Shown here: in pieces, positions 9,913 through 62,540 of the stretch
Layout: every line of letters begins with the position of its first letter
How positions within the stretch are numbered: the stretch's first letter is position 1
The notes under the pieces: generated by a model
Databases searched by the model: none
What the model saw: the letters and a program-made list of their open reading frames with translations, nothing else
Told to the model about the DNA's origin: nothing
Assembly: GCA_018818835.1 (NCBI GenBank)
Contig: JAHIRD010000141.1
Coordinates: forward strand, 4,608 to 68,607
DNA length: 64,000 bases
Direction: 5' to 3'
Source of the DNA: Pseudomonadota bacterium
GTDB lineage: Bacteria; Desulfobacterota; Desulfobacteria; Desulfobacterales; Desulfolunaceae
Position numbers and translations under genes: made by a program

Positions 9913-10041
9913 ATTATAACCCTCTATCCATCGCGCAGGAGAAATTTCCTGCCCACTGTTCCCAAAGTATTGAAACAGTACATATCAAAAAATATCGGAA
10001 AAGGCACTGTATTATTGCTGTGATATCCAGGTTCACGGCGG

Positions 10042-11599: not shown

Positions 11600-11641
11600 A
11601 GAGTTGTCCTTTAAAACATAATGTTTTGTATGTCACTCCAA

Positions 11642-11708: not shown

Positions 11709-11732
11709 GTTTCTTGAAACATTTGATCCTAT

Positions 11733-12642: not shown

Positions 12643-12686
12643 TTTCTTCTCCAAAGTAAAATTAAAAATTAATTTAATTTACCAGA

Positions 12687-12762
12687 GGCAACCCGACCAT
12701 CCCCATCGCAAGCATGATGCGGACTCGTTGGCTTTCCGTCCCTGGATTACTCCAGGTTTGGT
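12687..12762 (-). promoter_or_regulatory. GEMM-I-like riboswitch aptamer, variant with A at the selectivity position
   Basis: Minus sense: AUACCAAACCUGGAGUAAUCCAGGGACGGAAAGCCAACGAGUCC...GGAUGGUCGGGUUGCC. Stem 1 is CCUGGA/UCCAGG with a GUAA loop. The base two nt 5' of CAAACC is A here; it is G in the other six copies. Confidence 0.75.
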
Positions 12763-13765
12763 ATTTTCTTTGGCGGTTTTGCTTGCGCACCCTTGCGCAA
12801 GACAAATTGATTTGTAAAAACGATTTACCATTAAACAGATTCGTTTAACGTTCTTAAGAATTAGCCTCCTTTCCATATAAAAAGAAATGTCCCCACATTC
12901 CAGTTAATATTCATATCCCTAATGAGTCTTTTTAAAGATCTTAAGGGACACGCGACGACCTAACTAAAGCCGCCGGAAACAACATGTATGTAAATTTTAG
13001 AAAGAGCTGATTTATGCCTACCTCGTAAACCGGTTGGCTGTGCGGCCCATGTGTTCTCGTGTGTGGGCCTTGTCTTCGCATTCAATCATCGGATGAACCA
13101 TTCAAAAATTGAAAGACCGTAACAATGTTTTATAAAACGTACGAAGATAATCCTTATGTACGAAAGTAGTAGGGTCGAATGATGATTGTATATCCGCTGC
13201 CCTTTTGCTTTGTCAATTAAAAATTTTCGATTTTCTTAAAAATTAAATTGTACGAGTATAAAAAAAAGTACTTGAAACGATTGACAATAGTCATTGTGAA
13301 CGCTGTTCATCAGTTGTGCCAAATGTACTAAATAGGTCCATTCGGTTGTACAGCTGTTAAAATATCGAAATTTCAGGCATTTGAATTATAGCCCCGAAAA
13401 ATGATTTCGCGAAATCCTGCGAAAATATGGGCTTTTACCGAACAATGTTCATGTACTGGAATGGGATTTTGAGGAAAAAATATGATTTCTATTGAGTTTT
13501 TAAGGAACTTGCGCGTTTGGTAAGGTACCTTTTTGATAAATCGGGGGTCACCATGGGCGTTTGTCAGGTGAAAGTAATTCAATTATCCGATTTTAAAGGT
13601 ATTTTAACTGAATATATGTAAAAAAGTTCTTAGCTTTATTAAGTATTTTACCCAAGGAGAGAAACATAGTTTCAATAAATGGACATAGATCTTAATGACG
13701 ATCATGATACTCAGACCCTATGTTTTTAAGGGCTCGCAGGCGTTTAATTGAAGGATGGCATGGGA

Positions 13766-19944: not shown

Positions 19945-19997
19945 CCTGACAACGCAAGATGGTAACAATTAAATTCAATTTAGTGGTGGAGTTGAAT

Positions 19998-24270: not shown

Positions 24271-24663
24271 TTCCTGTTGTCTGTGAAAGGGACGTACATG
24301 TTATCCACGGTCCCCATGGCCCCAAAATGCTGTCAGATATCCAAATTGTTTTTTTGATGGTAAACCCATGTCATGCCTTTCTTAGTTGTTGAAATCAATG
24401 AACAATGTACACCCAAGATAACGTTGTGAGTTTTGCACGTGTAAAATAAAGTGGGGGGCGTTGTTGAAAGATTCTTGACAGTCGCTTTAATGCCATTTAT
24501 TTCAATATAATAGTTAGATTGTATTGGGTGGGGGCCTTCTTGATTTTTTAGATGATCTCTGTTGTTTTTGCTTGCAAAGTACCTGCGTATGAAGTCTGGC
24601 GCCCCGGATGTCCCGAAATATTAAATGGTAACGTAAGATTCATTGACGAGCTGGAGTTTGAGA

Positions 24664-27600
24664 ATGAAAAAACGTTTATTCGTATGGGTAATGGCTATGG
24701 GGCTTGGCTTATTTTTAAGCGCCTGTGGAATGATGAGTGATGATTCAACAGACAATGGTGACGCATTTCAGAAAAATCAGACACAGAATCCTGATGATCC
24801 CTATCCGGAATTTAAGCTTCTTGAGATATTCGATGGTCGTGGCGCTCTTGAGGAAATTTGGGACAGCATTGATGCCAAGAAAACCAACCCGCCTTTGGAA
24901 TGTACGGTGGATCGTTACACCGATGAGTTTGTGACCTTTTCCAATGTAACGGCCGGAATTCTCCGTGCTGATAGCCAGCCCGCAGCCCATCTTTTATCCG
25001 TAGAAACAGCGAGTATTCTTGGGCTCATACGAAATGAGGACCCGTCTTTTATAGAAAGCCCCCCGGATATCGGGGCCTTTTACAGCAAGAGTTCTGATGT
25101 TTACGCCGATGATTTTTACGCCTTTCTGGACAAACTCTGGGAAGGGGATCATAACCCGGGAGACCAGGCCATAGCAGCTATTGCAGGCAAGGTTGTGAAC
25201 CGGATTCTGGCAAAAAAAGATGCCGGAGAAATCCTTGCAGACATGCAGGACATGATCGATGATATTCTGGATGATAAGTTTGACCGGGATTTCAATGATT
25301 TGGCTTCACTTCTGGGTAAGCTCCTGCTCCAGGCAGATTATCCCCTCTGGATAGATACTGACGGGAATCCGGTGGGCCGGGATTTAATTGATCCTTCTTT
25401 GGATACCAATCTGGGAGTGGGTAACGCCGTTGAAGGCATGAACACCTTTGTGAACTGGCTTAACAAAATGATGTCAAACGTCCAGTCACGGGAAATGCTC
25501 TATGGTGTGATCCGGGAATCCGTAAAAATGTTCGATCCCGATCCCGACTCTTTGAACAGTGAAAAAGTCAAAGTTCTGCTGCAAAATATCGAAGACCATT
25601 TTACCAAAGGCGGTTTGGTTTACGAGGCCAACCCCCTTTACAAAAGTCTGCCTGCTGACCCCACATACACCGATTCCGAACTGGGGCAGACCGTCCGTGA
25701 ATTCATGCCCTACCTGGCCCAACTCCTGGCCCGGTCAGACCGGCCCATTTCCCTGATCAAAAATGATCAGGACGAAGAACCGGTTTATCTTCTCAGGGAG
25801 CTTGTGAATTCCTTGAAAAGTATTGGATATGATCCGGATACCCTGAGCATGGAAGACTCTCTGACCATGATGATGCAACACGACCTTCTGGGGCGGGACC
25901 GGACCCAGGCTGATTCCGGTGCCTTCCCGGCATCAATGGCCGAAAGCCTGGTCTTTCTCACCTGCGCCACCACCCATTTCGGGTTTGAAGATGGGGGGAA
26001 TACGGGAGAAACGACTGCAGCTGTGAATCCCATTACTCAGCACGGTCATGGGGATTATACCGAGGCTATGAGCCTGAACGATTCATTGATCAGCATGACC
26101 ACCACGAAGACCGCGGGCCTTTTGGGTCTTTATGATATCTCTCTTTTGGATGGGGATGACGAGTATCTGTCCCGAAGCAGTGTTCCATTTACCACAGCCA
26201 CCCGGAGCAACTACAAGTACGATGTTGACCAGGATTACCCGATTCTTGGTGCCTTGCCCGGGACCTGCGCCGGGGATTTCGGAACGCCGGATGGTGGAAA
26301 TCAAGGCGGGGCGATTATCCCAAAAAATCAATACAAACCTTACAACCCCACCGGCCTCGGGGAAACCCAACTGGCGGCCTGGACCGTTAACTGGGCCGTT
26401 AGAAGCTGTTTCGGCGGAGAAGGCCCCTATTATTACGAGAATCCCAATGCAGACATTGTGACGGTAGACGGGAAAGACTTTTACGCGTATCTGCGTCCCG
26501 ATGGAAGGGTCTACGCCCTGGTCAACAAGGACAACGATGTCTGGGAATACATTTATCCTACGGATGAGAGAGATGCGGAAGATCCGGAAACATCTGTTCT
26601 TGGTGATTACAACAACCTGAGGCAGCGTTTCAATCGATATAAATCCACCTGGCATTCGGATTATTACATGTACCGTCGAAGCAATCAGATCCGTACGGTG
26701 GACAACAGCAGCGGCAATTTGGAAACCCGTGCACTGAATGACGGTGATTCTGCACGGTCCCTGACCTATAATGAATTGATCCCCGAGGACGATGAAACGC
26801 ATATGAGGGCCTGTTCCAGTCCTGAAGAGGCTTTTTTCAGGAATTATCAATGGGTGTACATGGAGAAAAAAATGGTGCTGGTTATCCCCCAGAGTCTGTC
26901 TGTGAATGTCTTGGGCCTGGGCTTGGGGTATGGCTCCGTGTTTATGGTTATGGAGGCCCATGGATGGTCCGGGCTGGCAAACTTGCGAATTTTTAATGGC
27001 AATCATGTCTGGGCAAAAAAAGGAACGAACGGGACTTCGGATATCCCCGGTGATTATCGGGTGGAGTTGATCGCCGATATGGTATTTCCAGCCTCATTGG
27101 CTGTGACGACCAATACGGTATATAATTCGACCCTGGGCCGGGGTAATGCCAATCCGGCCATCATCGGCAAGAACCTGCCGGCGCTGTACCGGTTGGCCTT
27201 CCCCCTCAGCCCGGGAATGGACCGGGGTAACGGCATTGTGGATGTGGAGCTGGGTTCCCGTGATTTCCAAGTGGATGATGCCATTTGGCAGGACCGAAGC
27301 GCTGTCGCGCCAGCCTTTGTTTCTTTGCTCCAGGCCATTGAAAAAAACCGGGTCAATTATTCGGATTATGATCGTAACTCACTGAAGAACGGAATTCTCG
27401 GAAATGTGAATAATTTGGCTCCCCTGATGAAGCCACTGATTTATTACAGTAAAAACACAGACGGAACCTTCCCCAAAGAAACCTGGAAAGTTCGAGTGCA
27501 GACGGCACCCAGTAGCGAAGATTGGTTTGGTGAGCCCTATTTGCAACCCAGCGTCGGTTTTGACACAGAAGAAGCACAGAGGTGGGATGGGACAGATCAC

Positions 27601-28740
27601 GAGTGGCAGCATTACCAGCCTGCGGTGATGAAAGATTTGATCAATGTCTTGATTGACAGTGATATCACCGCACCGGTGGCTGATGGAAAGAGAATGGACG
27701 GGATACTTCCGGTGTTGGCTGAAAACCATACGGTGACCAACCTTCTCAAGGTGCTGATGAGTGATACCAACGATAGCAATGATCTGTATAGTGCTCTGGA
27801 GCAGATTGTGGGAGCCGTTAAATACACTGAAGGGCAGATGACGAAAATCAATCGGGCAGCGGACGCCACAAAGAAAATTCCATTTCCTGACTGGATGTTC
27901 GCCCAGGGAACAGGTGCCGACGAATTTGGTTTTTATACGGATTATTCCGATGTGCGTGATGAGGATATCATTCTTGACATCGGTCTGGACCGGCTGATAG
28001 GGCATAACAGCTTTGAGGATGGCACCTTCCATGAGGGCTATGGCTTGGCCAACTACGTGGATGAACAGGAAAATCTCACCCCGGTTGCCTGGGCTGATTT
28101 TGACAAGGATGTGGACACCCTGGAAGATCTTCTCTACCCTGGCCCGGTAACCTATGATGGAGTGCCTTACGTTGAAAATCCCTATTGCATCGTAGAGTCA
28201 ATTATAGATATGCAGGATGCTATTTTTGCAAGGGATTCTCTGTATTCCCAAGATCAGGTTGCAGGTCTCTTGTACACGCTCGGCAAGATGTTTACCCGCT
28301 ATGACAGCGAACTGGGCCAATGGGTGGTTCAAGGAGACGCTGGATTCGCAGACCTATACACTATTCTGAAGGTCAGGGTTCCGGCCATTCATGATCTGGT
28401 CAAGGACGATACCGGAGCCAATTATTGGGCCTTTATGGTTGTGAACGGGGATATGCTTGTGAACAAGGATATGCTTGCCCTGGAAAATCCCTGCGGGATC
28501 TCCAACGGTATGATACCCTATCTTCTGGAAGCCATGAGCAGTGATGACGGGGCTGAAAACATCATGAGAGATGCTCACACCTTTTTGATGGATGATCTCG
28601 TCTCTGAACCTGCTCCTTTGTGGTCCACCTTGGCCGATCTATTGTCGGATATGGCAACGGCCACGAAGGAGGCCAAGGAAGGTAATCTGGTTGAAAAGGT
28701 ATTCGAAAACTACGGGTTCCAACGTAACGGGGATTATTGA
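24664..28740 (+). CDS. Giant lipoprotein (1358 aa), unknown function; paralog 2
   Basis: ATG at 24664 lies 7 nt after GGAG. MKKRLFVWVMAMGLGLFLSAC carries a lipobox (LSAC). Collinear with paralog 1; by eye well over half of the residues are identical. Confidence 0.85.
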   Translation: MKKRLFVWVMAMGLGLFLSACGMMSDDSTDNGDAFQKNQTQNPDDPYPEFKLLEIFDGRGALEEIWDSIDAKKTNPPLECTVDRYTDEFVTFSNVTAGILRADSQPAAHLLSVETASILGLIRNEDPSFIESPPDIGAFYSKSSDVYADDFYAFLDKLWEGDHNPGDQAIAAIAGKVVNRILAKKDAGEILADMQDMIDDILDDKFDRDFNDLASLLGKLLLQADYPLWIDTDGNPVGRDLIDPSLDTNLGVGNAVEGMNTFVNWLNKMMSNVQSREMLYGVIRESVKMFDPDPDSLNSEKVKVLLQNIEDHFTKGGLVYEANPLYKSLPADPTYTDSELGQTVREFMPYLAQLLARSDRPISLIKNDQDEEPVYLLRELVNSLKSIGYDPDTLSMEDSLTMMMQHDLLGRDRTQADSGAFPASMAESLVFLTCATTHFGFEDGGNTGETTAAVNPITQHGHGDYTEAMSLNDSLISMTTTKTAGLLGLYDISLLDGDDEYLSRSSVPFTTATRSNYKYDVDQDYPILGALPGTCAGDFGTPDGGNQGGAIIPKNQYKPYNPTGLGETQLAAWTVNWAVRSCFGGEGPYYYENPNADIVTVDGKDFYAYLRPDGRVYALVNKDNDVWEYIYPTDERDAEDPETSVLGDYNNLRQRFNRYKSTWHSDYYMYRRSNQIRTVDNSSGNLETRALNDGDSARSLTYNELIPEDDETHMRACSSPEEAFFRNYQWVYMEKKMVLVIPQSLSVNVLGLGLGYGSVFMVMEAHGWSGLANLRIFNGNHVWAKKGTNGTSDIPGDYRVELIADMVFPASLAVTTNTVYNSTLGRGNANPAIIGKNLPALYRLAFPLSPGMDRGNGIVDVELGSRDFQVDDAIWQDRSAVAPAFVSLLQAIEKNRVNYSDYDRNSLKNGILGNVNNLAPLMKPLIYYSKNTDGTFPKETWKVRVQTAPSSEDWFGEPYLQPSVGFDTEEAQRWDGTDHEWQHYQPAVMKDLINVLIDSDITAPVADGKRMDGILPVLAENHTVTNLLKVLMSDTNDSNDLYSALEQIVGAVKYTEGQMTKINRAADATKKIPFPDWMFAQGTGADEFGFYTDYSDVRDEDIILDIGLDRLIGHNSFEDGTFHEGYGLANYVDEQENLTPVAWADFDKDVDTLEDLLYPGPVTYDGVPYVENPYCIVESIIDMQDAIFARDSLYSQDQVAGLLYTLGKMFTRYDSELGQWVVQGDAGFADLYTILKVRVPAIHDLVKDDTGANYWAFMVVNGDMLVNKDMLALENPCGISNGMIPYLLEAMSSDDGAENIMRDAHTFLMDDLVSEPAPLWSTLADLLSDMATATKEAKEGNLVEKVFENYGFQRNGDY

Positions 28741-28804: not shown

Positions 28805-29039
28805 TTAAACACTGGAAGATAATAGGACATATAAGTCCCATGGGTCCCATAGGTCCCATAAGACTTTTATGTCCTTTTTTTTAGAAAACCTGTGTTTTCC
28901 AGGGCGGAGTCCCCGGCTTTTCTTTTCAGGTTTGTTTGATCAAGGGATTGATCAAACAAATCACGATGTGATACATTTAATTCACGTATTTTTTATTCTG
29001 TGTCATGGCAATTCCCAGTTTAATTCACGAGGCCACTGT

Positions 29040-30470
29040 ATGTTTAGGCTATTGATGACATGGCGAACCATTCTTGACATTGTGCTCATCGCCGGAGCGC
29101 TTTTCTTTTTGTACAGGACTCTGATCCGCCTGGGAACCTGGAAGATCGTGTCCGGGATTCTAATTGCGGCCATTGTGTTTATCCTTTCAAGTTTTATGGA
29201 TTTGAAAGGCATTGAATGGATTTACCAAAATCTCAGCCATGTTGCCGTCATCAGCCTGGTGGTGATTTTTCAGCCAGAACTCCGAAAAATCTTGGAGAAA
29301 ACTGCCACCATGAGGCGGAACAAAGGCCTGGCCTATGATGAAGAATTTTCCAAGCTCATTGCCGGGAGTATTTGGGAAATGGCATCCAAGCGGATCGGGG
29401 CGATTATTGTCATCCCCGGCAATGAACCGGTGACACCCTGGTTGACCGGTGGCCTTCCCATCGACGCCATCCCAAGCCATTCATTGATTTTGAGTATCTT
29501 TGACCCCAACTCTCCTGGCCATGACGGCGCTTTGATTGTCAATCAAGGAAAGCTTTCCTCTTTTGGTGTCCGCCTGCCGATTTCAAGAAGCGGAAAACTT
29601 TCGGAGGATTTCGGCACTCGACATCAGGCTGCCATGGGTTTGAGTGAACGGTGCGATGCCCTGGTCATTGTCGCTTCGGAGGAGCGTGGGGTTGTCTCGG
29701 TGTTCTTTAACGGTGGAATCAGTACCATGGCCGGTGAACAGATGATTTTCGATGCCATTTGTTCTCACTGCAATGACGACGGAACCTCCCATCTGGATAT
29801 TCAGCCTGTGCATATGGGGCGGAAAATCATCAGGGATGGCGTGGGTTCCCTTCTGGTCGCCCTGATTTTCTGGTTGACGATGATTTATTCCCAAAGTGAA
29901 ATCTTGGAAAAAATTATTTCAGTGCCCATCGAATACACTGCCACGGCCCAGGACGTGGTCATGATCGGAGAAAAACCCAAGGAGATAAGGGCCCATCTTA
30001 CGGGTTCCAAGTCCGACCTGGACGCCTTGAACCCCGCCTCCCTGAGTGTCAAGCTCGACCTATCCAAATCCGAGGAGGGCAAGCAGACATTTCCCATCAA
30101 CGAAGACAATATCCAGCTGCCCAAAGGACTCCGGCTCATCGACGTGGAACCGTCCTCGGTTGATATCACCATGGCCAAGCTCATCATGAAAGAGGTTGGT
30201 ATCAACCCCCAGCTCGTGGGCAAACTGCCCGATGGGTTTGAACTGGTTTCGGTCAAAACCGTGCCGGAAAAAATAGCCGTGTCCCTGCCATCGGCAGAAA
30301 ACGGTCAGACAAGCCAACATGTGACCACCACACCGGTCTACCTCAGCACCATCCGGGAAACCACCACCTTGTTCTGCAAAATCGTGGCCCCGCCCACGGT
30401 GCAACTTCGTGAAAAACAATGGCCGGATGTGTCGGTGACCCTCACCGTCAAGGAGGTCAAACCGCGATAA
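29040..30470 (+). CDS. cdaA: Diadenylate cyclase CdaA fused to C-terminal YbbR (CdaR-like) domains
   Basis: The preferred start is ATG 29040 (MFRLLMTWRTILDIVLIAGALFFLYRTL). Three N-terminal TM segments, IFQPELRKILE, and DAC-domain motifs GHDGALIV and GTRHQAAMGLSE. A further TM follows, then YbbR-like repeats (ISVPIEYTA..., LSVKLDLS..., VEPSSVDITMAK). Confidence 0.8.
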   Translation: MFRLLMTWRTILDIVLIAGALFFLYRTLIRLGTWKIVSGILIAAIVFILSSFMDLKGIEWIYQNLSHVAVISLVVIFQPELRKILEKTATMRRNKGLAYDEEFSKLIAGSIWEMASKRIGAIIVIPGNEPVTPWLTGGLPIDAIPSHSLILSIFDPNSPGHDGALIVNQGKLSSFGVRLPISRSGKLSEDFGTRHQAAMGLSERCDALVIVASEERGVVSVFFNGGISTMAGEQMIFDAICSHCNDDGTSHLDIQPVHMGRKIIRDGVGSLLVALIFWLTMIYSQSEILEKIISVPIEYTATAQDVVMIGEKPKEIRAHLTGSKSDLDALNPASLSVKLDLSKSEEGKQTFPINEDNIQLPKGLRLIDVEPSSVDITMAKLIMKEVGINPQLVGKLPDGFELVSVKTVPEKIAVSLPSAENGQTSQHVTTTPVYLSTIRETTTLFCKIVAPPTVQLREKQWPDVSVTLTVKEVKPR

Positions 30471-40889: not shown

Positions 40890-41639
40890 ATGGAGTTTGA
40901 CGACTTGTTTGGTCTTGAGGAGAAAATCATTCGTCATGGGGAAAAAATCATGAGCTTGGACTCACCCCAAGGGACCATGTGGAAGGATGAGTATGCAACA
41001 CTCCTGAAACACTATGAAAAAATGTATAAGCAGTTGACCCGATTGATCAAGATTAACGACAGGCAGCAGAGTAAACTTTCCCAGGCCAACACCATCCTTG
41101 AAAAACACTCCAAATACGATGAGCTGACCGGGATATGCAACCGGCGAATGTTCAATGAGATGTACGAACGTGAGTGGCGTCGATGTATCCGTTATAAACA
41201 AACCATGTCAATTCTGATATTTGATATCGATCATTTCAAGCAGGTTAATGATGAATACGGTCACCAGGCAGGGGATGAGATTCTGAAAATAACGGCCAAA
41301 AAAATTGATAAGGTGGCGCGACGTGTCGGGGATCTGGCCGCGCGATATGGCGGAGAAGAGTTTATCCTTCTTCTCCCGGACACTGAGAAAATGGGTGCCT
41401 TTAAGATGGCCGAAGAGATCCGCAAGGATATTTCGAAAATACGGTTCCCCTATGAGGACAAGACCATTGGCATTACCATCAGTGCCGGGCTTGCCTTCAT
41501 GGTTCCTGATATGGGCAATGATCCTGAAAAATTGATCCGGAGATCTGACGATGCCTTGTACATGGCCAAACGGACGGGTCGAAATCGCGTGTGTATCTTT
41601 GAGGACATTCGGATGGAGGGGGCGGATCATGCTGGATAA
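40890..41639 (+). CDS. Diguanylate cyclase (GGDEF) with an N-terminal helical module and intact I-site
   Basis: DIDHFKQVNDEYGHQAGDEIL, and RVGD-LAARY-GGEEF (RxxD I-site five residues before GGEEF). No TM segment and no sensor domain other than an N-terminal module of about 75 aa. Confidence 0.9.
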   Translation: MEFDDLFGLEEKIIRHGEKIMSLDSPQGTMWKDEYATLLKHYEKMYKQLTRLIKINDRQQSKLSQANTILEKHSKYDELTGICNRRMFNEMYEREWRRCIRYKQTMSILIFDIDHFKQVNDEYGHQAGDEILKITAKKIDKVARRVGDLAARYGGEEFILLLPDTEKMGAFKMAEEIRKDISKIRFPYEDKTIGITISAGLAFMVPDMGNDPEKLIRRSDDALYMAKRTGRNRVCIFEDIRMEGADHAG

Positions 41640-42189
41640 ACTCTATGGTATGGTGGAATATTTCAAAGACCATGAGCTGGTTTTCTGGTATAATGGACCC
41701 GTATCCCAGGTTCTTGTGGTGGAGATAGGAGACATCATCAAGAAAAGCATTGATACGTCATCGGATAAAAAGGTCATCACCAGGATATTCGGCATCCTGG
41801 TGGAACAGATGCAGAACATTATTAAATATTCAGTTCAAAAAACACCACGTATGGACAAAGTAAACCGTTTTTTCATGAGTTCCGGCCTGATTGCCGTAGG
41901 CATTGAAAATGAATTCTATTCGGTGGTCAGTGGAAATCCAGTCAAAAACAAGGATATTAAACGCATTAGTGAGCGTTTGGACAGAATTATCGCCATGGAC
42001 CGGGAGGGCCTGAAAGACTATTACAAAACCATGAGGAGACAGGAGCCAGACGAACAAAGCCTTGGAGCAGGTCTGGGTTTTATCGAGATGGCAAAAAAAG
42101 CCAGCATGCCCCTGGAATACAGATTTACAGCCATTGATGAGAATCATAGTTTTTTTTCCATGAAAGCGCTTGTTAAGATGGAGCCATGA
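41629..42189 (+). CDS. SiaB-like (GHKL-type) partner-switch protein kinase
   Basis: ATG at 41629 after GGAGGGGG, overlapping the GGDEF stop. LVFWYNGPVSQVLVVEIGDIIKK and GAGLGFIEMAKKASMPLEYRF resemble the SiaB family blocks F-x-GP-x-S and GAGLGL...P-L-x-Y-x-F (from memory). Confidence 0.6.
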   Translation: MLDKLYGMVEYFKDHELVFWYNGPVSQVLVVEIGDIIKKSIDTSSDKKVITRIFGILVEQMQNIIKYSVQKTPRMDKVNRFFMSSGLIAVGIENEFYSVVSGNPVKNKDIKRISERLDRIIAMDREGLKDYYKTMRRQEPDEQSLGAGLGFIEMAKKASMPLEYRFTAIDENHSFFSMKALVKMEP

Positions 42190-42569
42190 TGGATGATCTG
42201 ATCATAAACGCTACCCCGTTCACACCTGAAATCCGATTTTATTACTCGAAAGATTGCCTTGAAATCTCAGGGGAATCCTATCCCGAAAACACGTCGGAAT
42301 TTTACGGCCCGGTGTTTCGGAGTCTTTCCACCTACCTGGACGGTATCATTGACCGAACCGTGACCGTAATCGTGCGTATGAAATATTTTAACAGTAGCTC
42401 CTCTAAAATATTGATCAATCTGTTTGATCAGCTTGACGATGCCTGCGAAAAGGGAAATGATATCACCGTAAACTGGTTTTATAGAAACGGCGACGATGAT
42501 TCACGTGAATTTGGCGAAGAATTCTCAGAAGATCTTCAGTACCTGCATTTCAATATCGTGCCTGAATGA
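42186..42569 (+). CDS. SiaC-like DUF1987 protein (partner-switch component)
   Basis: ATGA overlap with the upstream gene. TPFTPEIRFYYSKDCLEISGESYPENTSEFYGPV...KYFNSSSSKILINLF...ITVNWFY matches the DUF1987 pattern tP.v.f......l.isG.S.PEn...FY.P...yfNTsSsK (from memory). Confidence 0.75.
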   Translation: MMDDLIINATPFTPEIRFYYSKDCLEISGESYPENTSEFYGPVFRSLSTYLDGIIDRTVTVIVRMKYFNSSSSKILINLFDQLDDACEKGNDITVNWFYRNGDDDSREFGEEFSEDLQYLHFNIVPE

Positions 42570-42627
42570 GAGGGGTTAAGAATACACAGGGGGTTAAGAT
42601 CTCCTGAATGTATCCTTATGAAAAAAT

Positions 42628-44439
42628 ATGAGTGACGATCTACTATTTAGTCTTGAAGAAACGATAATCACTGAGGCAGAAGACGTCTTGAAACACATGT
42701 CTTCTTCGGACGCCTCTTTGAATAAGCATTACGCTAAGCTCCTAAAACAATACAAGAAAATTTTCAAAAATCATAAAAAACTCATCAAGATCAATGATAT
42801 TCAACAGAAAAAACTCAATGAAGTGATCAAGGAGGTGGAGCAGGCCAAAGAAGCCGCTGAAACAGCGAATAAATCCAAAAGCAGCTTTCTTGCCAACATG
42901 AGCCATGAGATCCGGACACCCATGAATGGCATTATTGGAATGACTGGCCTTCTCCTTGAAACACCCCTTAACGTGGAACAGATCGATTATGCCCGGACGA
43001 TTCAGTTCAGCGCGGATTCCCTACTGACCATAGTCAACGATATCCTTGATTTTTCTAAAATTGAAGCCAAAAAACTTGAACTGGAAATGACTGATTTTGA
43101 TCTCCGGCAATCCATGGAGGATGTGGTGGAGCTCATCTCTGTCAACGCCCATGAAAAAGAGTTGGAGCTTATTTTGAACATCGCCGTTGACGTGCCTTGC
43201 TTTTTAATTGGTGACCCGGGACGATTGCGTCAAATCCTGTTCAATCTTGCAGGAAATGCCGTGAAGTTCACTGAAAAAGGTGAGGTGGCCATCAGGATAT
43301 CCACGGAAGATGATGATGGAAAAACCGTTAGGCTAAGATTTGAGGTGTCGGATACCGGTATGGGAATTCCTGAAAATCGTTTGAATCGGCTTTTCAAATC
43401 CTTTTCCCAGGTGGACGAATCCACCACTCGAAAATACGGCGGTACAGGTCTTGGGCTTGCCATATCAAAAGAACTGTCCGAAATGATGGGTGGGGCAATC
43501 GGGATTATTCCGAATCCGGGTCAGGGTGTGACCTTCTGGTTCACTGCTGTGTTTGAAAAACAGGCCCAGGGGCAGGAATGTCTACCGGTGATTCCCTCGT
43601 CCGTTTCCGGGAAAAAGATTCTGGCCGTGGAAGATAATGAGACCAATCGCCTGGTCCTGGAGGGATATCTCAAATCATGGGGCTGCAGGTGTATTTCGGT
43701 CCCGGGTGCAAAACAGGCGCTTTCGATGATGAAAGAGGCCCTGGCCGCAGGAGATCCCTTCCATCTGGCTGTGATCGATCACATGATGCCTGGTATGGAT
43801 GGCGAAATGCTTGGGAAAATGATAAAGGCGGATCCCTCCTTGTCCGGTACCCGGTTGGTGATTCTGGGATCTCGTGGTTTGAGGGGCGATGCTGATGCCT
43901 TGGAAAAGGCCGGATTTGATCGGGTCATTACCAAACCAGTGCGCCAAAATCAGCTTCTGGAATGCATATCGCTCCTTCTCGGGGATGTTCCAGGCACACA
44001 GGTTGACAGTAGTATCCTCCCTGGGGAGGATAGAGTCATGGGCAGAATCAGGCCCAAACGGAAAATGCGAATTCTTCTTGCCGAAGACAACATCGTCAAC
44101 CAGAAACTGGCTTTGGTTCTGTTGAGAAAATTCGGGTTCAATGTCGATGCCGTGGCCAACGGTAAGGAAGCTGTGGAATCCCTGAAAAAAATACCCTACG
44201 ACCTCGTTCTCATGGATGTCCAGATGCCTGAGATGGATGGTTTTGAAGCTACCGGAATCATTCGTGATCCACGTTCAGGGGTCCTTAATAACGAGGTCAT
44301 GATCATCGCCATGACAGCCCATGCCATGAGGGGTGACAGGATGCGGTGTATTGAGGCAGGGATGAACAGCTATGTGTCAAAACCCATTGACCCCCGGACA
44401 CTGATTGACGTGATCCAGGAGGTTTTCCAGGGGGGGTGA
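42628..44439 (+). CDS. Cytoplasmic hybrid histidine kinase with two receiver domains
   Basis: H-box [18 protein letters not shown]. HATPase blocks [17 protein letters not shown] and [11 protein letters not shown]. Two REC domains ([13 protein letters not shown]...DHMMPGMDG and [13 protein letters not shown]...[10 protein letters not shown]). Confidence 0.9.
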
Positions 44440-44449: not shown

Positions 44450-47400
44450 TCACGCCGGAATAGAATAGCTTGTAATATCAATCATGGTTCGATCATCAAT
44501 GGGCATGTCAAATTTTAGGTGAAGGGAAAAATGAGTTCCTTTTTGTTCTCTGGCACTGATGATGGTCCCCACCCCAGCCACTTCGATGGGTTTGCTCCGG
44601 GTCAGTATGGCGATGGCCATGTTGAGCTTTCGGCCAAGCAGAAGACGAGCCGTTTCCTTTTTCGTTGTCTTGATCATGAATGAAATCCCCCCGATGGAAA
44701 AATCCAGGAGTTTGCCCTTAAATGGCTTTCCAATGGGCTTTTCGTGTGTATCCAGAAGCTGAACCAGAGTTTTCCCGTTTAGATTCAGTCGTTTTTGCTG
44801 GCGACGATCAAGTCCTGTTTTCGTGACCAGGGTGTTAATCCCATCCCCCAGAGCACAATAATCCATCAGTTTTTTTTCCAGTTCGGGATGTTTGAAACAC
44901 AGATTTTTCAAAGTGTCCCGATCCAGATAACTCACTTTGACCTGGGACAGGGTGATAAGGGACACCGTGGACACCGAGATTGCGAAAAAGGTGTCGTCAC
45001 CGGCAATATCTCCGGCACCTAACATTTTTAAAAAAAACTCGTTGTCCCCATGGGTATAGACAATTTTCAGCTGACCCCGGTTGATGAAATAGAGCCTTGC
45101 GTTTTTTTGATGCTGGGTGATGATGGTTTCATCCGAGGCGTATTCGGCTACTTTTAAGCTGTAAAAAAGATCATTGGCTTCTTCGTTGTTCAGCCGTTCA
45201 TACAGATTCCCCCAGATATTCATGTAATCGTTGATAATGGCATTGTTTTTTTCTTCTTCGATCACATCGCCGGTTTTCACAATTTCATTGAGGGCCATGG
45301 GATCCACTTCAAAAAGTTTTTCCCGGAGTTCTTCGGCTTTGGTGAAATTTTTCTCCCTGGCAAATTTGACAGTCATTCGGTAAAGGAGCCGGACGGCTTC
45401 AGCCGTGTTTTTTTGTCTGACATACTCATCCACCAGTGCCTCAAGGCGCGCGGGATCCGCAGTGAGCAGATCTTCGGTTTTTGCGTCGCCCCGGGTACGA
45501 CTTTTTTTCGTGTTTGAGTCGGTTTTGTTTTTTTCCGCCTCATCTTTTGCCCCTTTCGTGGGCAGACTCTGTAGGTATTTTAATGTCAGGGATGCAGACT
45601 GCCGTAATTCCGGTCCATAACTATTGATTCCCAGGATTCCTTTCTGGGTGACAATGGAGCTGAGTGTGGGGATGGCTTTTTTGGAGCCGATTCGTTTCAA
45701 GGCAGCGCATATGGTCAGATCAAGCTCATTTTTCGCTTCAGCAGACTCTGCTGCTTTTGCCTTGAGGACCTGTGTCAGGGGAAAGACACCCTCGTCACTT
45801 TCAGTTTTTCCAATCAGATCAGCGGCCAGACGTTTGATGCTGTCATCCGGAATGGCAAGGGCTTGGATAAAAAATTTGACTCTTTCCTTGCCTCCGATAT
45901 CAAAGGCACAGTTCAGAGCCGCTTTGGGGACCTTCTCATTTTTATGTTTCAAAAGAGGTCTGAGTATGTCCAAGTGCTCTTCGGAACCCATGTCGCTGAG
46001 AAGTTTGATGAGGTTCCTCATATAGAACCATGAACTACCTTGCTGGAGGCGTAGCACAATGGCGGGCAGGGCCGGTGTCCCGATTTCTGTGAGAGCATTG
46101 ATGGTGCGCACCCGTTGGGACATGTCTTCACTGGTTCTAAGCAGGTCCAGAAGGGGGATAACCGAGATTTCGCTCAATCGAATTAGCGTGTAATAGGCGT
46201 TTTTACCTTCATTTTTTTCATTATCACGAAATTCAGAGAACACCAGATCAAAGGTCGCTTCATTGGCAATGTCGCTAAGAATCCTTGCTGCGATGTCTTT
46301 GATTTCCGTGTTTTTTCTGAGACGCCCATCGGTGATGAAGCTGAATGTTTCAAGGATGGTGTTGGCCTCGGAGAATTGATAGTTGTGGATGAGCTGCCGG
46401 GTATGGCTCTGTAGCATCTTGCAGGCCGCTTTAAAGTTGAAGGTGGCCTCGGTTTCAAATTTAATCCAGAGGTTAAGCTTGTGGGCGAGTTTGTTGATTT
46501 CATCCTGTTTGTTTTCGGAAATGAACGTCTCCATGATGGAAAGGAGAGCTGAAGACGCTAAGGACCTGATCTTCAAGGATTCATTGAGAAGACCATCGGC
46601 TATTCTGTTGATAAGGTTATGGGCCGAATCTACCTTGCCCGAATTGAACCAGAATCCTATCCGACCTGAAATACTCTCCATGATAAGGGGGTCGGCCAAA
46701 GACATAAAATCTCCCTGGAGGATTTTGTTTATTCCTTTCTGCTGATGGACCTTGTCCAGGGCGATCCTTTTTTTTTCTGTCAGGATTTTTTGTTTGATTT
46801 CTTCCCGGAGTACTCGGGTTTTCTGATTTTTTTTAAGCAGGCTCATGACGCTTGCAAACTGAGCGCTTTCTTCGGTCGTCAGTTGTTTGTCTGCATAGGC
46901 ATGGTTTTCGTTGATTCGGTTGATTTCGGAGAAAAAATCCACATACTGATCATCGGAAAGGGTTTTGACCAAGGTGTCAAAGAGGTTGCCAGCCTGGTTT
47001 TTCGCCATGACAACCGTGAGGAGTTCCTTATCGTTGTCAGACAAAGCACGGGTGATGCTGGAGGACACCCGGTCCCAGTTTTCCCGGGGTGTGGACCGGC
47101 CAAAGGCTTGAACCATTTTGCTGATGGTGTCGGGAAGAAGACTGTCAGCAAGGTTGATCCCCTGGCGCTTGATCAGTTGGATGCCTGTCTTGAAAAATTC
47201 ATTCACCCATTGGGAATCCGACGATTTTTCCCCAATACGCAGAAAATCGGTTTCCATGATACGCCGTTCACCCAGAAATGATTTGATCAGATCAATGTCT
47301 GTGCTGTCAAGCAAGGATGATTGAATTTGAGCGGTTTCAGGAATAAACAGGGAAGGGGAGATGGAGATGGAGCTTAAACCAGCCCCTGCCGCTATTTTTT

Positions 47401-47782
47401 GAATGCCACCCTCCAGATCGACCTCATCGCTGTTTTTGCTCAGGATATACAGCAAGTTTCTGAATTCAGTCGGGCTCGTTTCTTTTTTAAGAATGATGCT
47501 TTTAATCCTGAGATCGGACAAGATGTTCCTGAACGACGCCACCTGAGGAAACTGCTGGTGTTTGAAGCTTAATGGCTCTCCTGAAATCAGAAGGCTCTTT
47601 TCCGATTCTGCGATGAGAAGGGGCGTGTTCGACGTAATGGCATTTTGAATTCCGTTAAAGGCCTTATCGATGGAATTTGCGATCAGTGCACTTGATGGAG
47701 GATAAAGTCGAATATTATTTATGGCTGCAATCATGGCTGCAAGAATGTTAATAATTTTATCCATTGGAATCGAATTGGGCAT
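44450..47782 (-). CDS. 1110-aa HEAT-repeat / cNMP-binding / PilZ multidomain protein
   Basis: The helical N-terminal 700 aa contain HEAT-like units (RVRTINALTEIGTPALPAIV, ICAALKRIGSKKAIPTL). A cNMP-binding-like segment follows (LYFINRGQLKIVY...GAGDIAGDD). The C-terminal PilZ has RRQQKRL (RxxxR) and DFSIGGISF (DxSxxG). Confidence 0.75.
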   Translation of the reverse strand: MPNSIPMDKIINILAAMIAAINNIRLYPPSSALIANSIDKAFNGIQNAITSNTPLLIAESEKSLLISGEPLSFKHQQFPQVASFRNILSDLRIKSIILKKETSPTEFRNLLYILSKNSDEVDLEGGIQKIAAGAGLSSISISPSLFIPETAQIQSSLLDSTDIDLIKSFLGERRIMETDFLRIGEKSSDSQWVNEFFKTGIQLIKRQGINLADSLLPDTISKMVQAFGRSTPRENWDRVSSSITRALSDNDKELLTVVMAKNQAGNLFDTLVKTLSDDQYVDFFSEINRINENHAYADKQLTTEESAQFASVMSLLKKNQKTRVLREEIKQKILTEKKRIALDKVHQQKGINKILQGDFMSLADPLIMESISGRIGFWFNSGKVDSAHNLINRIADGLLNESLKIRSLASSALLSIMETFISENKQDEINKLAHKLNLWIKFETEATFNFKAACKMLQSHTRQLIHNYQFSEANTILETFSFITDGRLRKNTEIKDIAARILSDIANEATFDLVFSEFRDNEKNEGKNAYYTLIRLSEISVIPLLDLLRTSEDMSQRVRTINALTEIGTPALPAIVLRLQQGSSWFYMRNLIKLLSDMGSEEHLDILRPLLKHKNEKVPKAALNCAFDIGGKERVKFFIQALAIPDDSIKRLAADLIGKTESDEGVFPLTQVLKAKAAESAEAKNELDLTICAALKRIGSKKAIPTLSSIVTQKGILGINSYGPELRQSASLTLKYLQSLPTKGAKDEAEKNKTDSNTKKSRTRGDAKTEDLLTADPARLEALVDEYVRQKNTAEAVRLLYRMTVKFAREKNFTKAEELREKLFEVDPMALNEIVKTGDVIEEEKNNAIINDYMNIWGNLYERLNNEEANDLFYSLKVAEYASDETIITQHQKNARLYFINRGQLKIVYTHGDNEFFLKMLGAGDIAGDDTFFAISVSTVSLITLSQVKVSYLDRDTLKNLCFKHPELEKKLMDYCALGDGINTLVTKTGLDRRQQKRLNLNGKTLVQLLDTHEKPIGKPFKGKLLDFSIGGISFMIKTTKKETARLLLGRKLNMAIAILTRSKPIEVAGVGTIISAREQKGTHFSLHLKFDMPIDDRTMIDITSYSIPA

Positions 47783-59483: not shown

Positions 59484-59612
59484 TCAGTACCTTGCATGGT
59501 TAGCGTTAAACGCGGAAAGCTCTCGGCAGGATCGCCCGAAGCAAAAATACTATTAAGCTACAAAAAACCTTTTGTCAAAGATAGATGAACACGAACGCTA
59601 TAGGAGATGAGA

Positions 59613-62540
59613 ATGATGAAGAAAACGTTTCGGTTATACCAACAGCTCGCCATGATGGTCTTGCTGGCTGCCCTGGTCTCGGGCTGTAACAGTTCCACCC
59701 ATGTGAAAGAAACGGGAACCCCCATAACGACCGTCTCTGACCCCCAGACCGGCGATGTGTCCCTGTTTCCCAATTCGACTCTCCTGGCTTCGGCCAAGGA
59801 TATCCAAGATAACCCGGACGGGCTGATTCTGATCGATACCCGGTCTGGGGACGCCTATGCCGCAGGGCATATACCGGGAGCCATTTCCATGGATTGGAAA
59901 GAGTATGTTCTCTGGAATGATCCGCCCCAGAAAGCCGTACTCAAATCAGTGGCCAACCTGGAGTCCGCTTTGGGCAATAAGGGATTGACTCGTCTGTCTC
60001 ATATCGTGATCTACGATGACACCGTGACCTCCTGGGGTTCGGCGGGTCGGATTTTCTGGATGCTGGAAACTCTGGGCTGCACCCATGTCCGAATTCTCAA
60101 TGGCGGCTGGGATAAATGGATTACCGACGGTCTCGGGACCGAAACCACGGCCAGCACCCTGGACCGGGCGAAATTCGAGGCGGACCTGACCTTGTTTAGC
60201 GGGAACAGCGTGGATAAAGCGTATATTAAAAGCCGTCTTTCCGATGATGATTTTGCCGTGGTGGATACGCGGACCGATGCGGAATATATCGGCTGGAAAC
60301 TTTATGGAGAGGCCCGTGGCGGTCACATCCCCGGCGCGGTTCAGCTTCCCTATGAATCCTATTACAATGCAGATCATACCCTTCTTGGATACGATGATCT
60401 AAAAGCCATGCTTGACGCCCACGGGATCACTGCGGACAAGGAAGTGACGGCCTACTGCACCGCCGGAATCCGGTCCGGATTTTTTTATTTCCTGGGGCGG
60501 CTCATGGGCTTTCACCGGATCGCTAACTATGATGGGTCCATGTGGGACTGGTCTGCGGCCGATGAAGCCGACTATCCCATGGATACCATGGCTCATTATC
60601 AGGCGTTGGTGTCTCCTTCCTGGCTCGATACCCTGATCAAGGGTGAGGAAACCCCGGAAACGTTTCCGGCAGGCCAGGACTATGTGATTCTGTTTACGTC
60701 CTATGCGGCCCGTTACAGTGAAAACCGCACGGATTACGTGGGAACACCCTATGAAACCGGGCATATTCCCGGTGCCATTTTTCTCGATACCTATTCCATT
60801 GAAAACGGCCCATCTTCTGAATACGGGGACGGCTACCAGTCTCCCGAAGAAGGCAACGCCAAACCCATAGCTGACCTTCAGGACCTGTTCGGTTCTCTGG
60901 GTATTGCCCATGACACCACCGTGATTGTGTATGCGGATGATGAGATTTCCATGATGACCGCCGGGCGAGTGGCCTGGTCCCTGCTGCTGGCCGGAGTGGA
61001 GGATGTGAGAGTGTTAAACGGGAATTTTAAGGCCTGGGTGGCTTACGGTGGCGCGACGGAAACCGCTGTGAATGTCCTTGATCCGGTGGCCTTCGGCCAT
61101 GTCCCCGGCCGGGCGGATGTGCTGGCCGACATGGATGATCTAAACGATGTGATTGACGGCACAACCCCCGATGCCCTCATCGTGGATGACCGGGAATGGG
61201 CCGAATATGTGGGGTCATCCAATTCCTATTATCCCTATTTCAGCGAATACGGGCGGATTCCCACGGCCCAGTGGATCGGTGACTGGGTCAAGGTGGTCAG
61301 CGATGATATGCAATTTTTGAAAAGCCCCTATGCCGTGGATAAAGACTGGCGCGACGCCGGATTCACCCCGGCCAAAACCATGTATTTTTACTGCGGCACG
61401 GGCTGGCGCTCGGGCCTTTATACGTTCTATGCCTATCTGATGGGATGGCCCGCGGCCAACTTCGACGGGGGCTGGTTTCAATGGTCGTCTGTGGAGGGAA
61501 ATGACAGGGAGACCGGAAACTCAGATAAGCTCGTTACAGCATCCTGGGTCAAGACCATGGTCGACACGGAAAACGACGGGAATCCCTATGTGATCGTCGA
61601 AACGGGATGGGGCCAGCCTCCGGCGTCTTATTTAGACGGCCATATTCAAGGCGCCATCTGGGTAAACACCGATGAAATCGAATACGACTGTTTCAACGCC
61701 CGGAACGACTGGCCCGTGGATGAGGGTTACCCGGCCTGCATGGACCGGAGTACCACAGAAGAGGAAGACCTGGCCAAAGGATTGGGCCCTGATGATGCCC
61801 TGCCGAGAAATTGGTGGAACATCTATCCGGATCGCTACCTGCTTCCGGCCATCACCAACATGGGTATCGACAAGAACACCACGGTGGTGGTGTACGGCAA
61901 AGGCGGTTCCGCTGCCGCCAGGGTACTCTGGACCCTGATGTACGCCGGGGTTTCGGACGTGCGGTTCCTGAACGGCGGGAAGACCGCCTGGACAAGCGCC
62001 GGATACACTCTTGAAACCGGCTCCGTCACCCGGACACCGGTGGACTTTTTTGATCCGGATGACCAAGCGCGCGATACGGCCCTGCATCCCGAATACAAGG
62101 TGGATATCCCCTATGTCCGTGACGTGGTGAACGGGGTGTATCCCGACGATGTTTTGGTGGATATCAGGTCCCAAGACGAGTTCATCGGTGCCAGCCGTCC
62201 CTACCGCTACATCCCCACCGACGGCCGGGTTCCCGGAGCGGTCTGGGGCACCGATGATTTTACAAACACCGACGGCACCCTGGTCTCACCGGCGGAGATC
62301 TACCCCTACTGGCGGTCCTTGGGCATCACCCAGCGTGTCCACTCAAGCTACTACTGCGGCACGGCCTGGCGCTCCAGCCTGGCCTGGTTTTACGCTTACC
62401 TGATGGGTTACCCCGACATCAGCAACTTCGACAGCTCCTGGTTTGAATGGAGTATGGGCCTAGGGTCTGACTACAACGGGGACGATCCCGTGCTGAACCC
62501 CATTGAGGATGACAGCCCCACCTTGCCTGAACTGGAGTAG
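59613..62540 (+). CDS. Lipoprotein with six rhodanese domains (three tandem thiosulfate/polysulfide sulfurtransferase modules)
   Basis: AGGAGA RBS and lipobox LVSGC. GHIPGA occurs four times, plus GHIQGA and GRVPGA. Active-site loops CTAGIRS, CGTGWRS and CGTAWRS are in domains 2, 4 and 6. Confidence 0.85.
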   Translation: MMKKTFRLYQQLAMMVLLAALVSGCNSSTHVKETGTPITTVSDPQTGDVSLFPNSTLLASAKDIQDNPDGLILIDTRSGDAYAAGHIPGAISMDWKEYVLWNDPPQKAVLKSVANLESALGNKGLTRLSHIVIYDDTVTSWGSAGRIFWMLETLGCTHVRILNGGWDKWITDGLGTETTASTLDRAKFEADLTLFSGNSVDKAYIKSRLSDDDFAVVDTRTDAEYIGWKLYGEARGGHIPGAVQLPYESYYNADHTLLGYDDLKAMLDAHGITADKEVTAYCTAGIRSGFFYFLGRLMGFHRIANYDGSMWDWSAADEADYPMDTMAHYQALVSPSWLDTLIKGEETPETFPAGQDYVILFTSYAARYSENRTDYVGTPYETGHIPGAIFLDTYSIENGPSSEYGDGYQSPEEGNAKPIADLQDLFGSLGIAHDTTVIVYADDEISMMTAGRVAWSLLLAGVEDVRVLNGNFKAWVAYGGATETAVNVLDPVAFGHVPGRADVLADMDDLNDVIDGTTPDALIVDDREWAEYVGSSNSYYPYFSEYGRIPTAQWIGDWVKVVSDDMQFLKSPYAVDKDWRDAGFTPAKTMYFYCGTGWRSGLYTFYAYLMGWPAANFDGGWFQWSSVEGNDRETGNSDKLVTASWVKTMVDTENDGNPYVIVETGWGQPPASYLDGHIQGAIWVNTDEIEYDCFNARNDWPVDEGYPACMDRSTTEEEDLAKGLGPDDALPRNWWNIYPDRYLLPAITNMGIDKNTTVVVYGKGGSAAARVLWTLMYAGVSDVRFLNGGKTAWTSAGYTLETGSVTRTPVDFFDPDDQARDTALHPEYKVDIPYVRDVVNGVYPDDVLVDIRSQDEFIGASRPYRYIPTDGRVPGAVWGTDDFTNTDGTLVSPAEIYPYWRSLGITQRVHSSYYCGTAWRSSLAWFYAYLMGYPDISNFDSSWFEWSMGLGSDYNGDDPVLNPIEDDSPTLPELE

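Follow-up and report, generated by a model that had tools for sequence, protein, structure and literature searches.

A SiaB/SiaC-type partner switch lying between a diguanylate cyclase and a hybrid histidine kinase that share a predicted SiaC-docking module

Gene content and organization of the locus

The DNA analyzed here, called the window throughout, is the whole 64,000-nucleotide (64-kb) stretch of contig JAHIRD010000141.1 from a bacterium of the Desulfobacterales, and all positions refer to it. Four genes on its plus strand, at 40890 to 44439, encode a SiaD-like diguanylate cyclase, the kinase and the phosphoprotein of a SiaB/SiaC-type partner switch, and a cytoplasmic hybrid histidine kinase. 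The cyclase and the histidine kinase both start with the same predicted SiaC-docking helix, which suggests that one small switch protein probably controls cyclic di-GMP (c-di-GMP) synthesis and a phosphorelay together. The genes and their domains are as follows (aa, amino acids; HMM, hidden Markov model; AF2, AlphaFold2).

40890..41639, plus strand: SiaD-like diguanylate cyclase, 249 aa, docking module and GGDEF domain
40890..41108, plus strand: predicted N-terminal SiaC-docking module of the cyclase, residues 1-73 (homology to the kinase N-terminus and the SiaD stalk)
41037..41078, plus strand: core docking motif of the cyclase, TRLIKINDRQQSKL, residues 50-63 (gapless alignment to SiaD EKVARISDRYQQMM)
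41322..41363, plus strand: I-site RVGD (residues 145-148) and active site GGEEF (residues 154-158) of the cyclase (translation)
41629..42189, plus strand: SiaB-family GHKL-type Ser/Thr kinase, 186 aa (NF038262, DUF6272)
42186..42569, plus strand: SiaC-family switch phosphoprotein, 127 aa (PF09345)
42393..42395, plus strand: codon of Ser70, equivalent of the Pseudomonas aeruginosa SiaC phosphosite Thr68 (alignment of YFNSSSSK with YLNTSSIK)
42628..44439, plus strand: cytoplasmic hybrid histidine kinase, 603 aa, docking module-HisKA-HATPase_c-REC-REC
42628..42846, plus strand: predicted N-terminal SiaC-docking module of the histidine kinase, residues 1-73 (blastp to the cyclase N-terminus, hhalign)
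42775..42816, plus strand: core docking motif of the histidine kinase, residues 50-63 (same register as the cyclase motif)
42877..43548, plus strand: HisKA (residues 84-147; phospho-acceptor His93 at 42904-42906) and HATPase_c (residues 195-307) (Pfam)
43615..44415, plus strand: receiver domains REC1 (about residues 330-448) and REC2 (residues 482-596) (Pfam, own HMM, and AF2 agree)

The siaB-like ATG at 41629 lies within the last cyclase codons, giving an 11-nt overlap with a ribosome-binding site, GGAGGGGG, just upstream. The siaB-like and siaC-like genes meet in an ATGA overlap (42186-42189), and a 58-nt spacer separates the siaC-like stop codon from the kinase ATG. The four plus-strand open reading frames (ORFs), both overlaps, and the gap were thus found exactly as an earlier note on this DNA had described them. 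No terminator-like sites were found on the plus strand inside the four-gene cluster in a promoter and terminator scan, and promoter-like sites were not more frequent than in shuffled sequence. The order cyclase-SiaB-SiaC-kinase was kept in four further contigs (loci L001, L002, L010, and L011) at 63-80% SiaC identity, which argues that the arrangement is not due to chance, and the SiaB orthologues of L001 and L002 are also 186 aa long with the same 11-nt overlap. The closest loci, with SiaC identities of 63-64%, came from metagenome-assembled genomes (MAGs) labelled Desulforapulum autotrophicum and Desulfobacteraceae. The four genes are closely packed, and related genomes have kept them as a unit.

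Switch proteins, cyclase, and hybrid kinase

Profile searches placed the two central proteins in the SiaB and SiaC families, in agreement with the earlier note. The 186-aa protein scored 175.6 bits against the SiaB-family kinase model SiaB_fam_kinase NF038262 (cut-off, 85) and 142 bits against Pfam DUF6272, and matched SiaB in the Protein Data Bank (PDB; 6kko_A, E = 2.9e-15). It keeps the GHKL N-box (E..QN) and G-box (GAGLG), reading VEQMQNI and GAGLGFIEMAKKAS against IEMTQNI and GAGLGLLDIARKSS in 6kko_A, and the motif GAGLGFIEMAKKASMPLEYRF quoted in the earlier note is present in the translation. The 127-aa protein, which that note had called a DUF1987 protein, scored 137.2 bits against PF09345 (gathering score, 24.5) over profile positions 1-119 of 120 and matched the SiaC structures 6k4f and 6kko_C (E about 1e-15). 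Cut-offs of the narrower equivalog models were not reached by the 186-aa protein (SiaB NF038264, 112.3 bits; cut-off, 225) or by the 127-aa protein (SiaC NF038265, 91.8 bits; cut-off, 150). Ser70 of the SiaC-like protein, in a Y-x-N-[TS]-S-S loop, is nearly invariant in an alignment of 23 homologues. Residues Y31, Y65, N67, S69, D79, E110, and D114 are identical to those of P. aeruginosa SiaC, and D29, T68, M75, and L107 are conservatively replaced in the window protein.

The cyclase scored 169 bits against Pfam GGDEF, and its best NCBIfam model was SiaD (NF038266, 191.5 bits), whose equivalog cut-off of 290 was not reached. A search of PDB sequences matched it to SiaD 7E6G_A (E = 7e-34). The GGEEF active site and the RxxD I-site, RVGD five residues upstream, are present in the translation as previously noted, and R145, G154, G155, E156, E157, and F158 are invariant in the alignment of module-bearing GGDEF proteins. 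In a Foldseek comparison of the cyclase AF2 model, SiaD 7E6G_A ranked second and gave the longest alignment, covering 232 of 249 columns (E = 9.8e-20).

The hybrid kinase matched Pfam HisKA (75 bits), HATPase_c (102 bits), and Response_reg (143 bits in two stretches). H93 (in SHEIRTP), N206, D242, G244, and G246 are invariant in the family alignment, and the receiver residues D530 and K585 are conserved. The Pfam scan detected neither a transmembrane nor a sensor domain in the protein, bearing out its earlier description as a cytoplasmic hybrid kinase with two receivers. No Hpt was found in the kinase or anywhere in the 64-kb window with Pfam or with our own Hpt HMM, and HMMs built from related loci (E <= 10) found no REC, histidine kinase, or Hpt elsewhere in the window. 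The kinase is an orphan, with two receivers and neither an Hpt nor a response regulator within 64 kb, so its relay partners should be distal.

A docking module shared by the cyclase and the kinase

Over residues 1-66, the cyclase and the kinase share 44% identity (29/66; blastp, E = 3e-15), and no Pfam model covers this segment. The docking motif is the most conserved part of the module, with LIKIND.QQ.KL identical in the two enzymes. Cyclase residues 18-121 align gaplessly to SiaD residues 45-148 of 7E6G_A (phmmer, E = 1.9e-12), and LTRLIKINDRQQSKL falls on LEKVARISDRYQQMM; the module matches the SiaD N-terminal stalk, including the ARISDRYQ-type motif where SiaC docks. When a profile of 12 kinase N-termini was compared with a profile of 9 classical beta/gamma-proteobacterial SiaD N-termini, hhalign returned a match over 64 columns (probability 97.1%, E = 5.4e-11).

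In SiaD, the contacts of the proximal SiaC-binding motif are R74, K77, V78, R80, I81, S82, D83, R84, Y85, Q86, M88, R90, and D91, and SiaC Thr68 is held by S82 and Q86 (PMC8457831). At the contact positions K77, V78, R80, I81, S82, D83, and Q86, both enzymes of the window have either the SiaD residue or a conservative substitute, as listed here together with R84.

SiaD K77: cyclase R, kinase K
SiaD V78: cyclase L, kinase L
SiaD R80: cyclase K, kinase K
SiaD I81: cyclase I, kinase I
SiaD S82: cyclase N, kinase N
SiaD D83: cyclase D, kinase D
SiaD R84: cyclase R, kinase I
SiaD Q86: cyclase Q, kinase Q

The AF2 models of the two enzymes have a common, SiaD-like topology, a helix at residues 8-22 followed by a long stalk. 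In the cyclase (predicted local distance difference test [pLDDT], 91.6), the stalk helix 29-75 leads into the GGDEF domain. In the kinase (pLDDT 80, from a 23-row alignment), a single continuous helix, residues 26-109, spans the motif at residues 50-63 and runs into helix 1 of the dimerization and histidine phosphotransfer (DHp) domain, which carries His93.

The earlier note had remarked that a hybrid kinase occupies the neighboring position in a cluster without PP2C. The kinase does not take the place of the phosphatase SiaA; it lies directly after SiaC, which is the slot of SiaD in the canonical A-B-C-D order. Because the kinase bears the docking module and holds the SiaD gene position, it is likely a SiaC target rather than a replacement for SiaA, and on balance we favor its being a second target that would act in parallel to the cyclase.

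Distribution of the module next to SiaB and SiaC

GTDB genomes were scanned with the SiaC alignment, which gave at least 550 relatives, and the 80 best-matching loci were analyzed with our own HMMs. They contained 68 module-bearing ORFs, 66 of which lie within 500 nt of a SiaB or SiaC ORF; the module was always the first domain, and SiaB was found in 77 of the 80 loci. Nearly all enzymes whose genes adjoin SiaB/SiaC begin with the module, and it is almost confined to such enzymes. The N-terminal sequence of the module occurs on GGDEF (L003), HD-GYP (L004 and L005), and class III cyclase (L008) proteins, on a 312-aa kinase (L005), and on hybrid kinases (L001 and L002). Module-bearing kinases stand beside SiaB/SiaC in independent lineages and gene orders (L005, L009, L012, L015, L018, L022, L026, L028, L030, L036, L093, and L094). 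In the reverse direction, all three module-bearing kinases chosen independently of SiaC adjoin a DUF6272 gene, and two of the three also adjoin SiaC (L009, L093, and L094). In L094 (5197-9860), SiaB is directly upstream of a module-bearing kinase with REC-Hpt-REC domains and a REC-GGDEF regulator.

A gene fusion in L017, from a Desulfosudis oleivorans MAG, indicates that such kinases and SiaB work together. There, a single 997-aa ORF (6994-9987, plus strand) joins the module to HisKA, HATPase, REC, REC, Hpt, and SiaB (DUF6272) domains. It is preceded by a 1896-aa Pkinase-AAA16-GAF-PAS-SpoIIE protein and followed by SiaC and a module-bearing GGDEF gene.

To assess occurrence beyond these loci, 1.84 billion representative proteins were scanned in full with HMMER, using a module profile built from four sequences (E <= 1e-3); this replaced a word-indexed search with the module alignment that had given six matches, mostly fragments. 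By this weak profile alone, 452 clusters (50% identity) carry the module, almost always at residues 1-73. The census of architectures rests on the 150 top representatives. Own HMMs classified 114 representatives of at least 200 aa as 59 kinases, 27 GGDEF proteins, 13 cyclases, 6 PP2C, and 2 HD-GYP proteins, a kinase share that is probably inflated because the seed profile held kinase-type N-termini. Pfam domains on 105 module-bearing representatives were HATPase_c (53), HisKA (44), Response_reg (30), GGDEF (24), Hpt (18 of the 105), Guanylate_cyc (12), SpoIIE (4), and HD_5 (2).

Some loci have more elaborate gene orders. L093 reads SiaB-SiaC-(REC-HATPase_c_2)-SiaB-SiaC-SiaB, then a module-bearing histidine kinase and REC-HD-GYP. 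L005 (7450-11685) is a tandem of SiaB-SiaC-SiaB-SiaC, a module-bearing HD-GYP protein, SiaC, and a module-bearing kinase, with three SiaC paralogues and two targets; the docking motifs of the targets differ (RLIKLSDKQQ versus RMMKISDRQQ), which hints at paralogue-specific SiaC pairing. In L071 (885-1839, plus strand), from Candidatus Achromatium palustre, SiaB and SiaC precede a PP2C with the module at its N-terminus, and the phosphatase itself may be recruited through the same motif in some systems.

The earlier proposal of a rewired module, in which the switch protein is tied to phosphorelay signaling, gained support from the SiaD-type docking module on the kinase. The arrangement is not a singular rewiring, however, and the window belongs to a large class that is as yet undescribed. 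No paper in the searchable literature ties SiaC/DUF1987 or DUF6272 to a histidine kinase or defines a portable module. In an eLife article, it was only suggested that DUF1987 proteins "modulate adjacent proteins" (PMC8457831), and the switch in the Anabaena HenR/All4160 preprint is of the STAS type.

Phosphatase genes at SiaC loci

The absence of a PP2C gene from the cluster, remarked in the earlier note, extends to the whole 64-kb window. Pfam found no SpoIIE/PP2C on any ORF of at least 150 aa, and our own HMM (E <= 10) found no PP2C on ORFs of at least 90 aa. A SiaA homolog just outside the operon was looked for, and none was present within 40 kb upstream or 20 kb downstream.

Phosphatase statistics were compiled from 63 loci in which each flank extended for 3 kb or more. 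A PP2C adjoins the SiaB/SiaC cluster in 46 of them. The missing neighbor is not exceptional: 17 of the 63 have no adjacent PP2C, and in 11 the 10 kb to either side contain no PP2C at all. In the 27 GGDEF-only loci, a PP2C always adjoins the cluster, as in the classical SiaABCD layout, whereas its absence is typical of kinase-containing loci, five of the seven having no adjacent one (Fisher p = 7.5e-5, for loci that are phylogenetically non-independent). L003 was considered as a phosphatase-free locus and discarded, its giant upstream Pkinase-AAA16-GAF-PAS protein ending in a SpoIIE domain.

In L011 (18748-20338, plus strand), genes for an Hpt protein (132 aa) and a REC-SpoIIE protein (373 aa) follow the SPOR gene about 6.5 kb downstream of the kinase. 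The REC-PP2C of L011 was examined as the missing phosphatase and rejected; its homologues belong to a separate cluster of Hpt, REC-SpoIIE, and HATPase_c_2 (RsbW-like) genes (also in L090, 7570-9623) that shows 60-98% identity in Desulfobacterales and is absent from the window. In SAR324-type genomes, an operon of a dCache histidine kinase, REC, and REC-SpoIIE abuts clusters of SiaC, SiaB, a module-bearing HD-GYP protein, SiaB, and a module-bearing kinase (L028, 13426-17355, minus strand; similarly L015, L026, and L024). This operon resembles a two-component version of the dCache-SpoIIE SiaA of L004 and L008, with the parts divided among separate proteins.

Comparison with known systems

The closest described system is SiaABCD of P. 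aeruginosa (PA0172-PA0169; structures 6K4F, 6KKO, 6KKP, and 7E6G). The two share a SiaB-family kinase, a SiaC-family phosphoprotein, and a GGEEF/RxxD cyclase in a tightly packed operon, a helical stalk at the cyclase N-terminus with a SiaC-docking motif, and presumably the logic by which unphosphorylated SiaC binds and activates the cyclase. They differ in that the window has no SiaA (HAMP-PP2C) in its 64 kb, is ordered D-B-C-kinase instead of A-B-C-D, and has a second module-bearing target, the hybrid histidine kinase after SiaC. Its phosphosite is Ser and not Thr, it has one clear docking motif and not two, and its SiaB-, SiaC-, and SiaD-like proteins all score under the NCBIfam equivalog cut-offs.

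HptB-HsbR-HsbA-HsbD of P. aeruginosa and BgrSTUWV of Sinorhizobium are likewise phosphorelay-linked partner switches that control a diguanylate cyclase through a small phosphorylatable antagonist (as cited in PMC8457831 and PMC7647112). There, a STAS protein serves as the antagonist, and the phosphorelay acts on the input side of the switch, by way of the REC-PP2C HsbR (as cited in PMC8457831 and PMC7647112). In the window, by contrast, the antagonist is SiaC-type and matches PF09345 only, and the kinase apparently lies on the output side; no REC-PP2C was found in the window with Pfam or our own HMMs. As in RsbU/RsbV/RsbW and SpoIIE/SpoIIAA/SpoIIAB, a GHKL-type Ser kinase would phosphorylate a small alpha/beta antagonist whose phosphorylation state picks the partner. 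The output in the window is an enzyme stalk and not a sigma factor, and no phosphatase is linked.

Small cytoplasmic proteins that bind the helical core of a histidine kinase and set its activity are familiar from Sda and KipI acting on KinA and PII acting on NtrB, all unrelated to SiaC in sequence and fold. To our knowledge, none of these is under a Ser/Thr kinase switch or acts through a portable N-terminal docking module that nucleotide cyclases also carry.

Neighboring genes and other features of the window

The gene following the operon is convergent with the kinase, with 10 nt between the stop codons.

44450..47782, minus strand: 1110-aa HEAT / cyclic nucleotide monophosphate (cNMP)-binding / PilZ protein (Pfam; PilZ domain at 44465-44809)

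The PilZ domain scored 27.6 bits against a cut-off of 22.5 (Pfam), and its RxxxR (RRQQKR) and DxSxxG (DFSIGG) motifs are intact in all four orthologues. The operon, the convergent HEAT/cNMP/PilZ gene, YdjM, and SPOR follow one another in conserved order in L002, L010, and L011, and L001 has the operon and the upstream Cus-type efflux genes in common with the window. Judging from its motifs, the 1110-aa protein is likely a c-di-GMP receptor. Because the motifs are conserved and the gene is syntenic with the operon, it could plausibly serve as the local reader of c-di-GMP from the cyclase, and it may combine c-di-GMP with a cyclic mononucleotide signal.

Five c-di-GMP-I riboswitch aptamers, all above the Rfam gathering scores, are located on the minus strand at 4009-4365, 11639-11718, and 12684-12772, the first region holding three in tandem (4275-4365, 4117-4207, and 4009-4101, the last a GGC variant). 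Each group is upstream of a DUF6160 paralogue (ORFs 3414-4040, 10793-11599, and 11812-12654), in a cluster with further genes for a C39 peptidase, a FadL-like outer-membrane protein, and a PD40 protein. The products are likely c-di-GMP-controlled surface or secreted proteins, encoded 28-38 kb from the cyclase. A c-di-AMP synthase CdaA (CdaA_N and DAC) fused to a YbbR domain (533 aa) is encoded at 28869-30470 (plus strand), and a 977-aa protein with six rhodanese domain stretches (262 bits) at 59607-62540 (plus strand). Three large ORFs of 837, 1346, and 1365 aa (16970-19483, minus strand; 19959-23999, plus strand; 24643-28740, plus strand) gave no Pfam match at E <= 1e-3.

Discussion

Several observations weigh against reading the kinase as a second SiaC target. 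The case for SiaC docking on it is built from homology and gene neighborhood. Of the two motifs of P. aeruginosa SiaD, the proximal one alone shows clear conservation, and within it R84 is Ile in the kinase and R74, Y85, M88, and R90 are not conserved. The SiaC-like protein differs from P. aeruginosa SiaC at Q10, I71, and R103 and has Ser instead of Thr at the phosphosite. L094 has SiaB beside its module-bearing kinase and no SiaC within 6 kb, so the module may have partners other than SiaC, and the composition of the seed profile inflates the apparent share of kinases. Moreover, a SiaB kinase that lacks its cognate phosphatase makes an incomplete switch, and the searches of the 64-kb window did not turn that enzyme up. 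Some of these points would suit a kinase that is a mere neighbor, with a generic dimerizing coiled coil shuffled from a SiaD-like gene at its N-terminus and no binding of SiaC, so that SiaB/SiaC would govern the cyclase alone; coiled-coil stalks often precede GGDEF as well as DHp domains. This seems unlikely, given that the docking motif is the best-conserved part of the module, identical in the two enzymes as against 44% overall, that module-bearing kinases adjoin SiaB/SiaC in independent lineages and gene orders, that a kinase and SiaB are fused in L017, and that the gene order of the window is retained across 63-80% SiaC identity.

The phosphatase question allows two further explanations. 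The SiaC-controlled kinase could signal through a stand-alone Hpt to a REC-PP2C that dephosphorylates phosphorylated SiaC (SiaC-P), two-component signaling thus taking the role of SiaA with feedback on itself. Such a loop would accommodate the Hpt and REC-SpoIIE genes downstream of the kinase in L011, which is the closest fully syntenic relative, the histidine kinase, REC, and REC-SpoIIE set flanking the SiaC/SiaB/kinase clusters of L015, L024, L026, and L028, the contrast in adjacent PP2C genes between kinase-containing and GGDEF-only loci, subject to their non-independence, and the need of a kinase with receivers and no Hpt for external relay partners. The L011-type REC-PP2C, however, sits in a separately conserved cluster that resembles an HptB/HsbR-type switch of its own (L090) and is far more conserved than the Sia genes, so its adjacency to the Sia operon may be coincidence. 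As neither this REC-PP2C nor the Hpt or a further receiver has an orthologue in the 64-kb window, we give the loop a low probability. It is very unlikely that the switch works without any phosphatase, with SiaB sequestering SiaC in an ATP/ADP-dependent manner, as SpoIIAB and RsbW can, or with SiaC-P reset by turnover or dilution. The well-flanked loci lacking PP2C within 10 kb and the stability of the SiaB-SiaC complex in P. aeruginosa (PDB 6kko) speak for it; the strict conservation of the phosphorylatable Ser and of the SiaB kinase motifs, and the retention of an adjacent PP2C in most loci, speak against it. Bacterial genomes, besides, commonly hold several unlinked PP2C genes.

Under the favored reading, in which the cyclase and the kinase are parallel SiaC targets, unphosphorylated SiaC would bind the LIKINDxQQ stalk motif of both enzymes. 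Binding to the cyclase would stabilize a parallel stalk dimer and turn c-di-GMP synthesis on, as in SiaD. Since the kinase motif is on a helix running into the DHp helix, about 30 residues before His93, binding there should set the dimer or register state of DHp and hence the autokinase or phosphatase activity, in either direction. The relay would continue through Hpt and response-regulator partners encoded elsewhere, and the adjacent HEAT-cNMP-PilZ protein would probably read the c-di-GMP of the cyclase. Phosphorylation of SiaC Ser70 by SiaB would release SiaC from both targets, and SiaC-P would be reset by an enzyme not encoded nearby, most likely a PP2C elsewhere in the genome.

A more ambitious combination of these elements appears quite unlikely to hold in full. 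The module of about 70 residues would be a general, portable SiaC receiver, making SiaB/SiaC a plug-in input for sensor-less histidine kinases, GGDEF and HD-GYP proteins, class III cyclases, and PP2C. In the window, one SiaC would command c-di-GMP and the hybrid-kinase relay, and a distal Hpt would pass the signal to a REC-PP2C that dephosphorylates SiaC-P, in a self-reinforcing loop for which SiaA is unneeded.

Many cytoplasmic histidine kinases have no recognizable sensor domain, and their route of input is often obscure. Should SiaC dock on the stalk of the kinase in the way it docks on SiaD, two-component phosphorelays would have a Ser/Thr-phosphorylation partner switch directly upstream as their regulator, and hundreds of such kinases could be recognizable by a short N-terminal module. 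The single characterized SiaC-SiaD pair would then widen to a modular rule embracing cyclases, phosphodiesterases, phosphatases, and kinases, and the locus described here would be a concrete case of one switch protein coordinating c-di-GMP and phosphorelay outputs.

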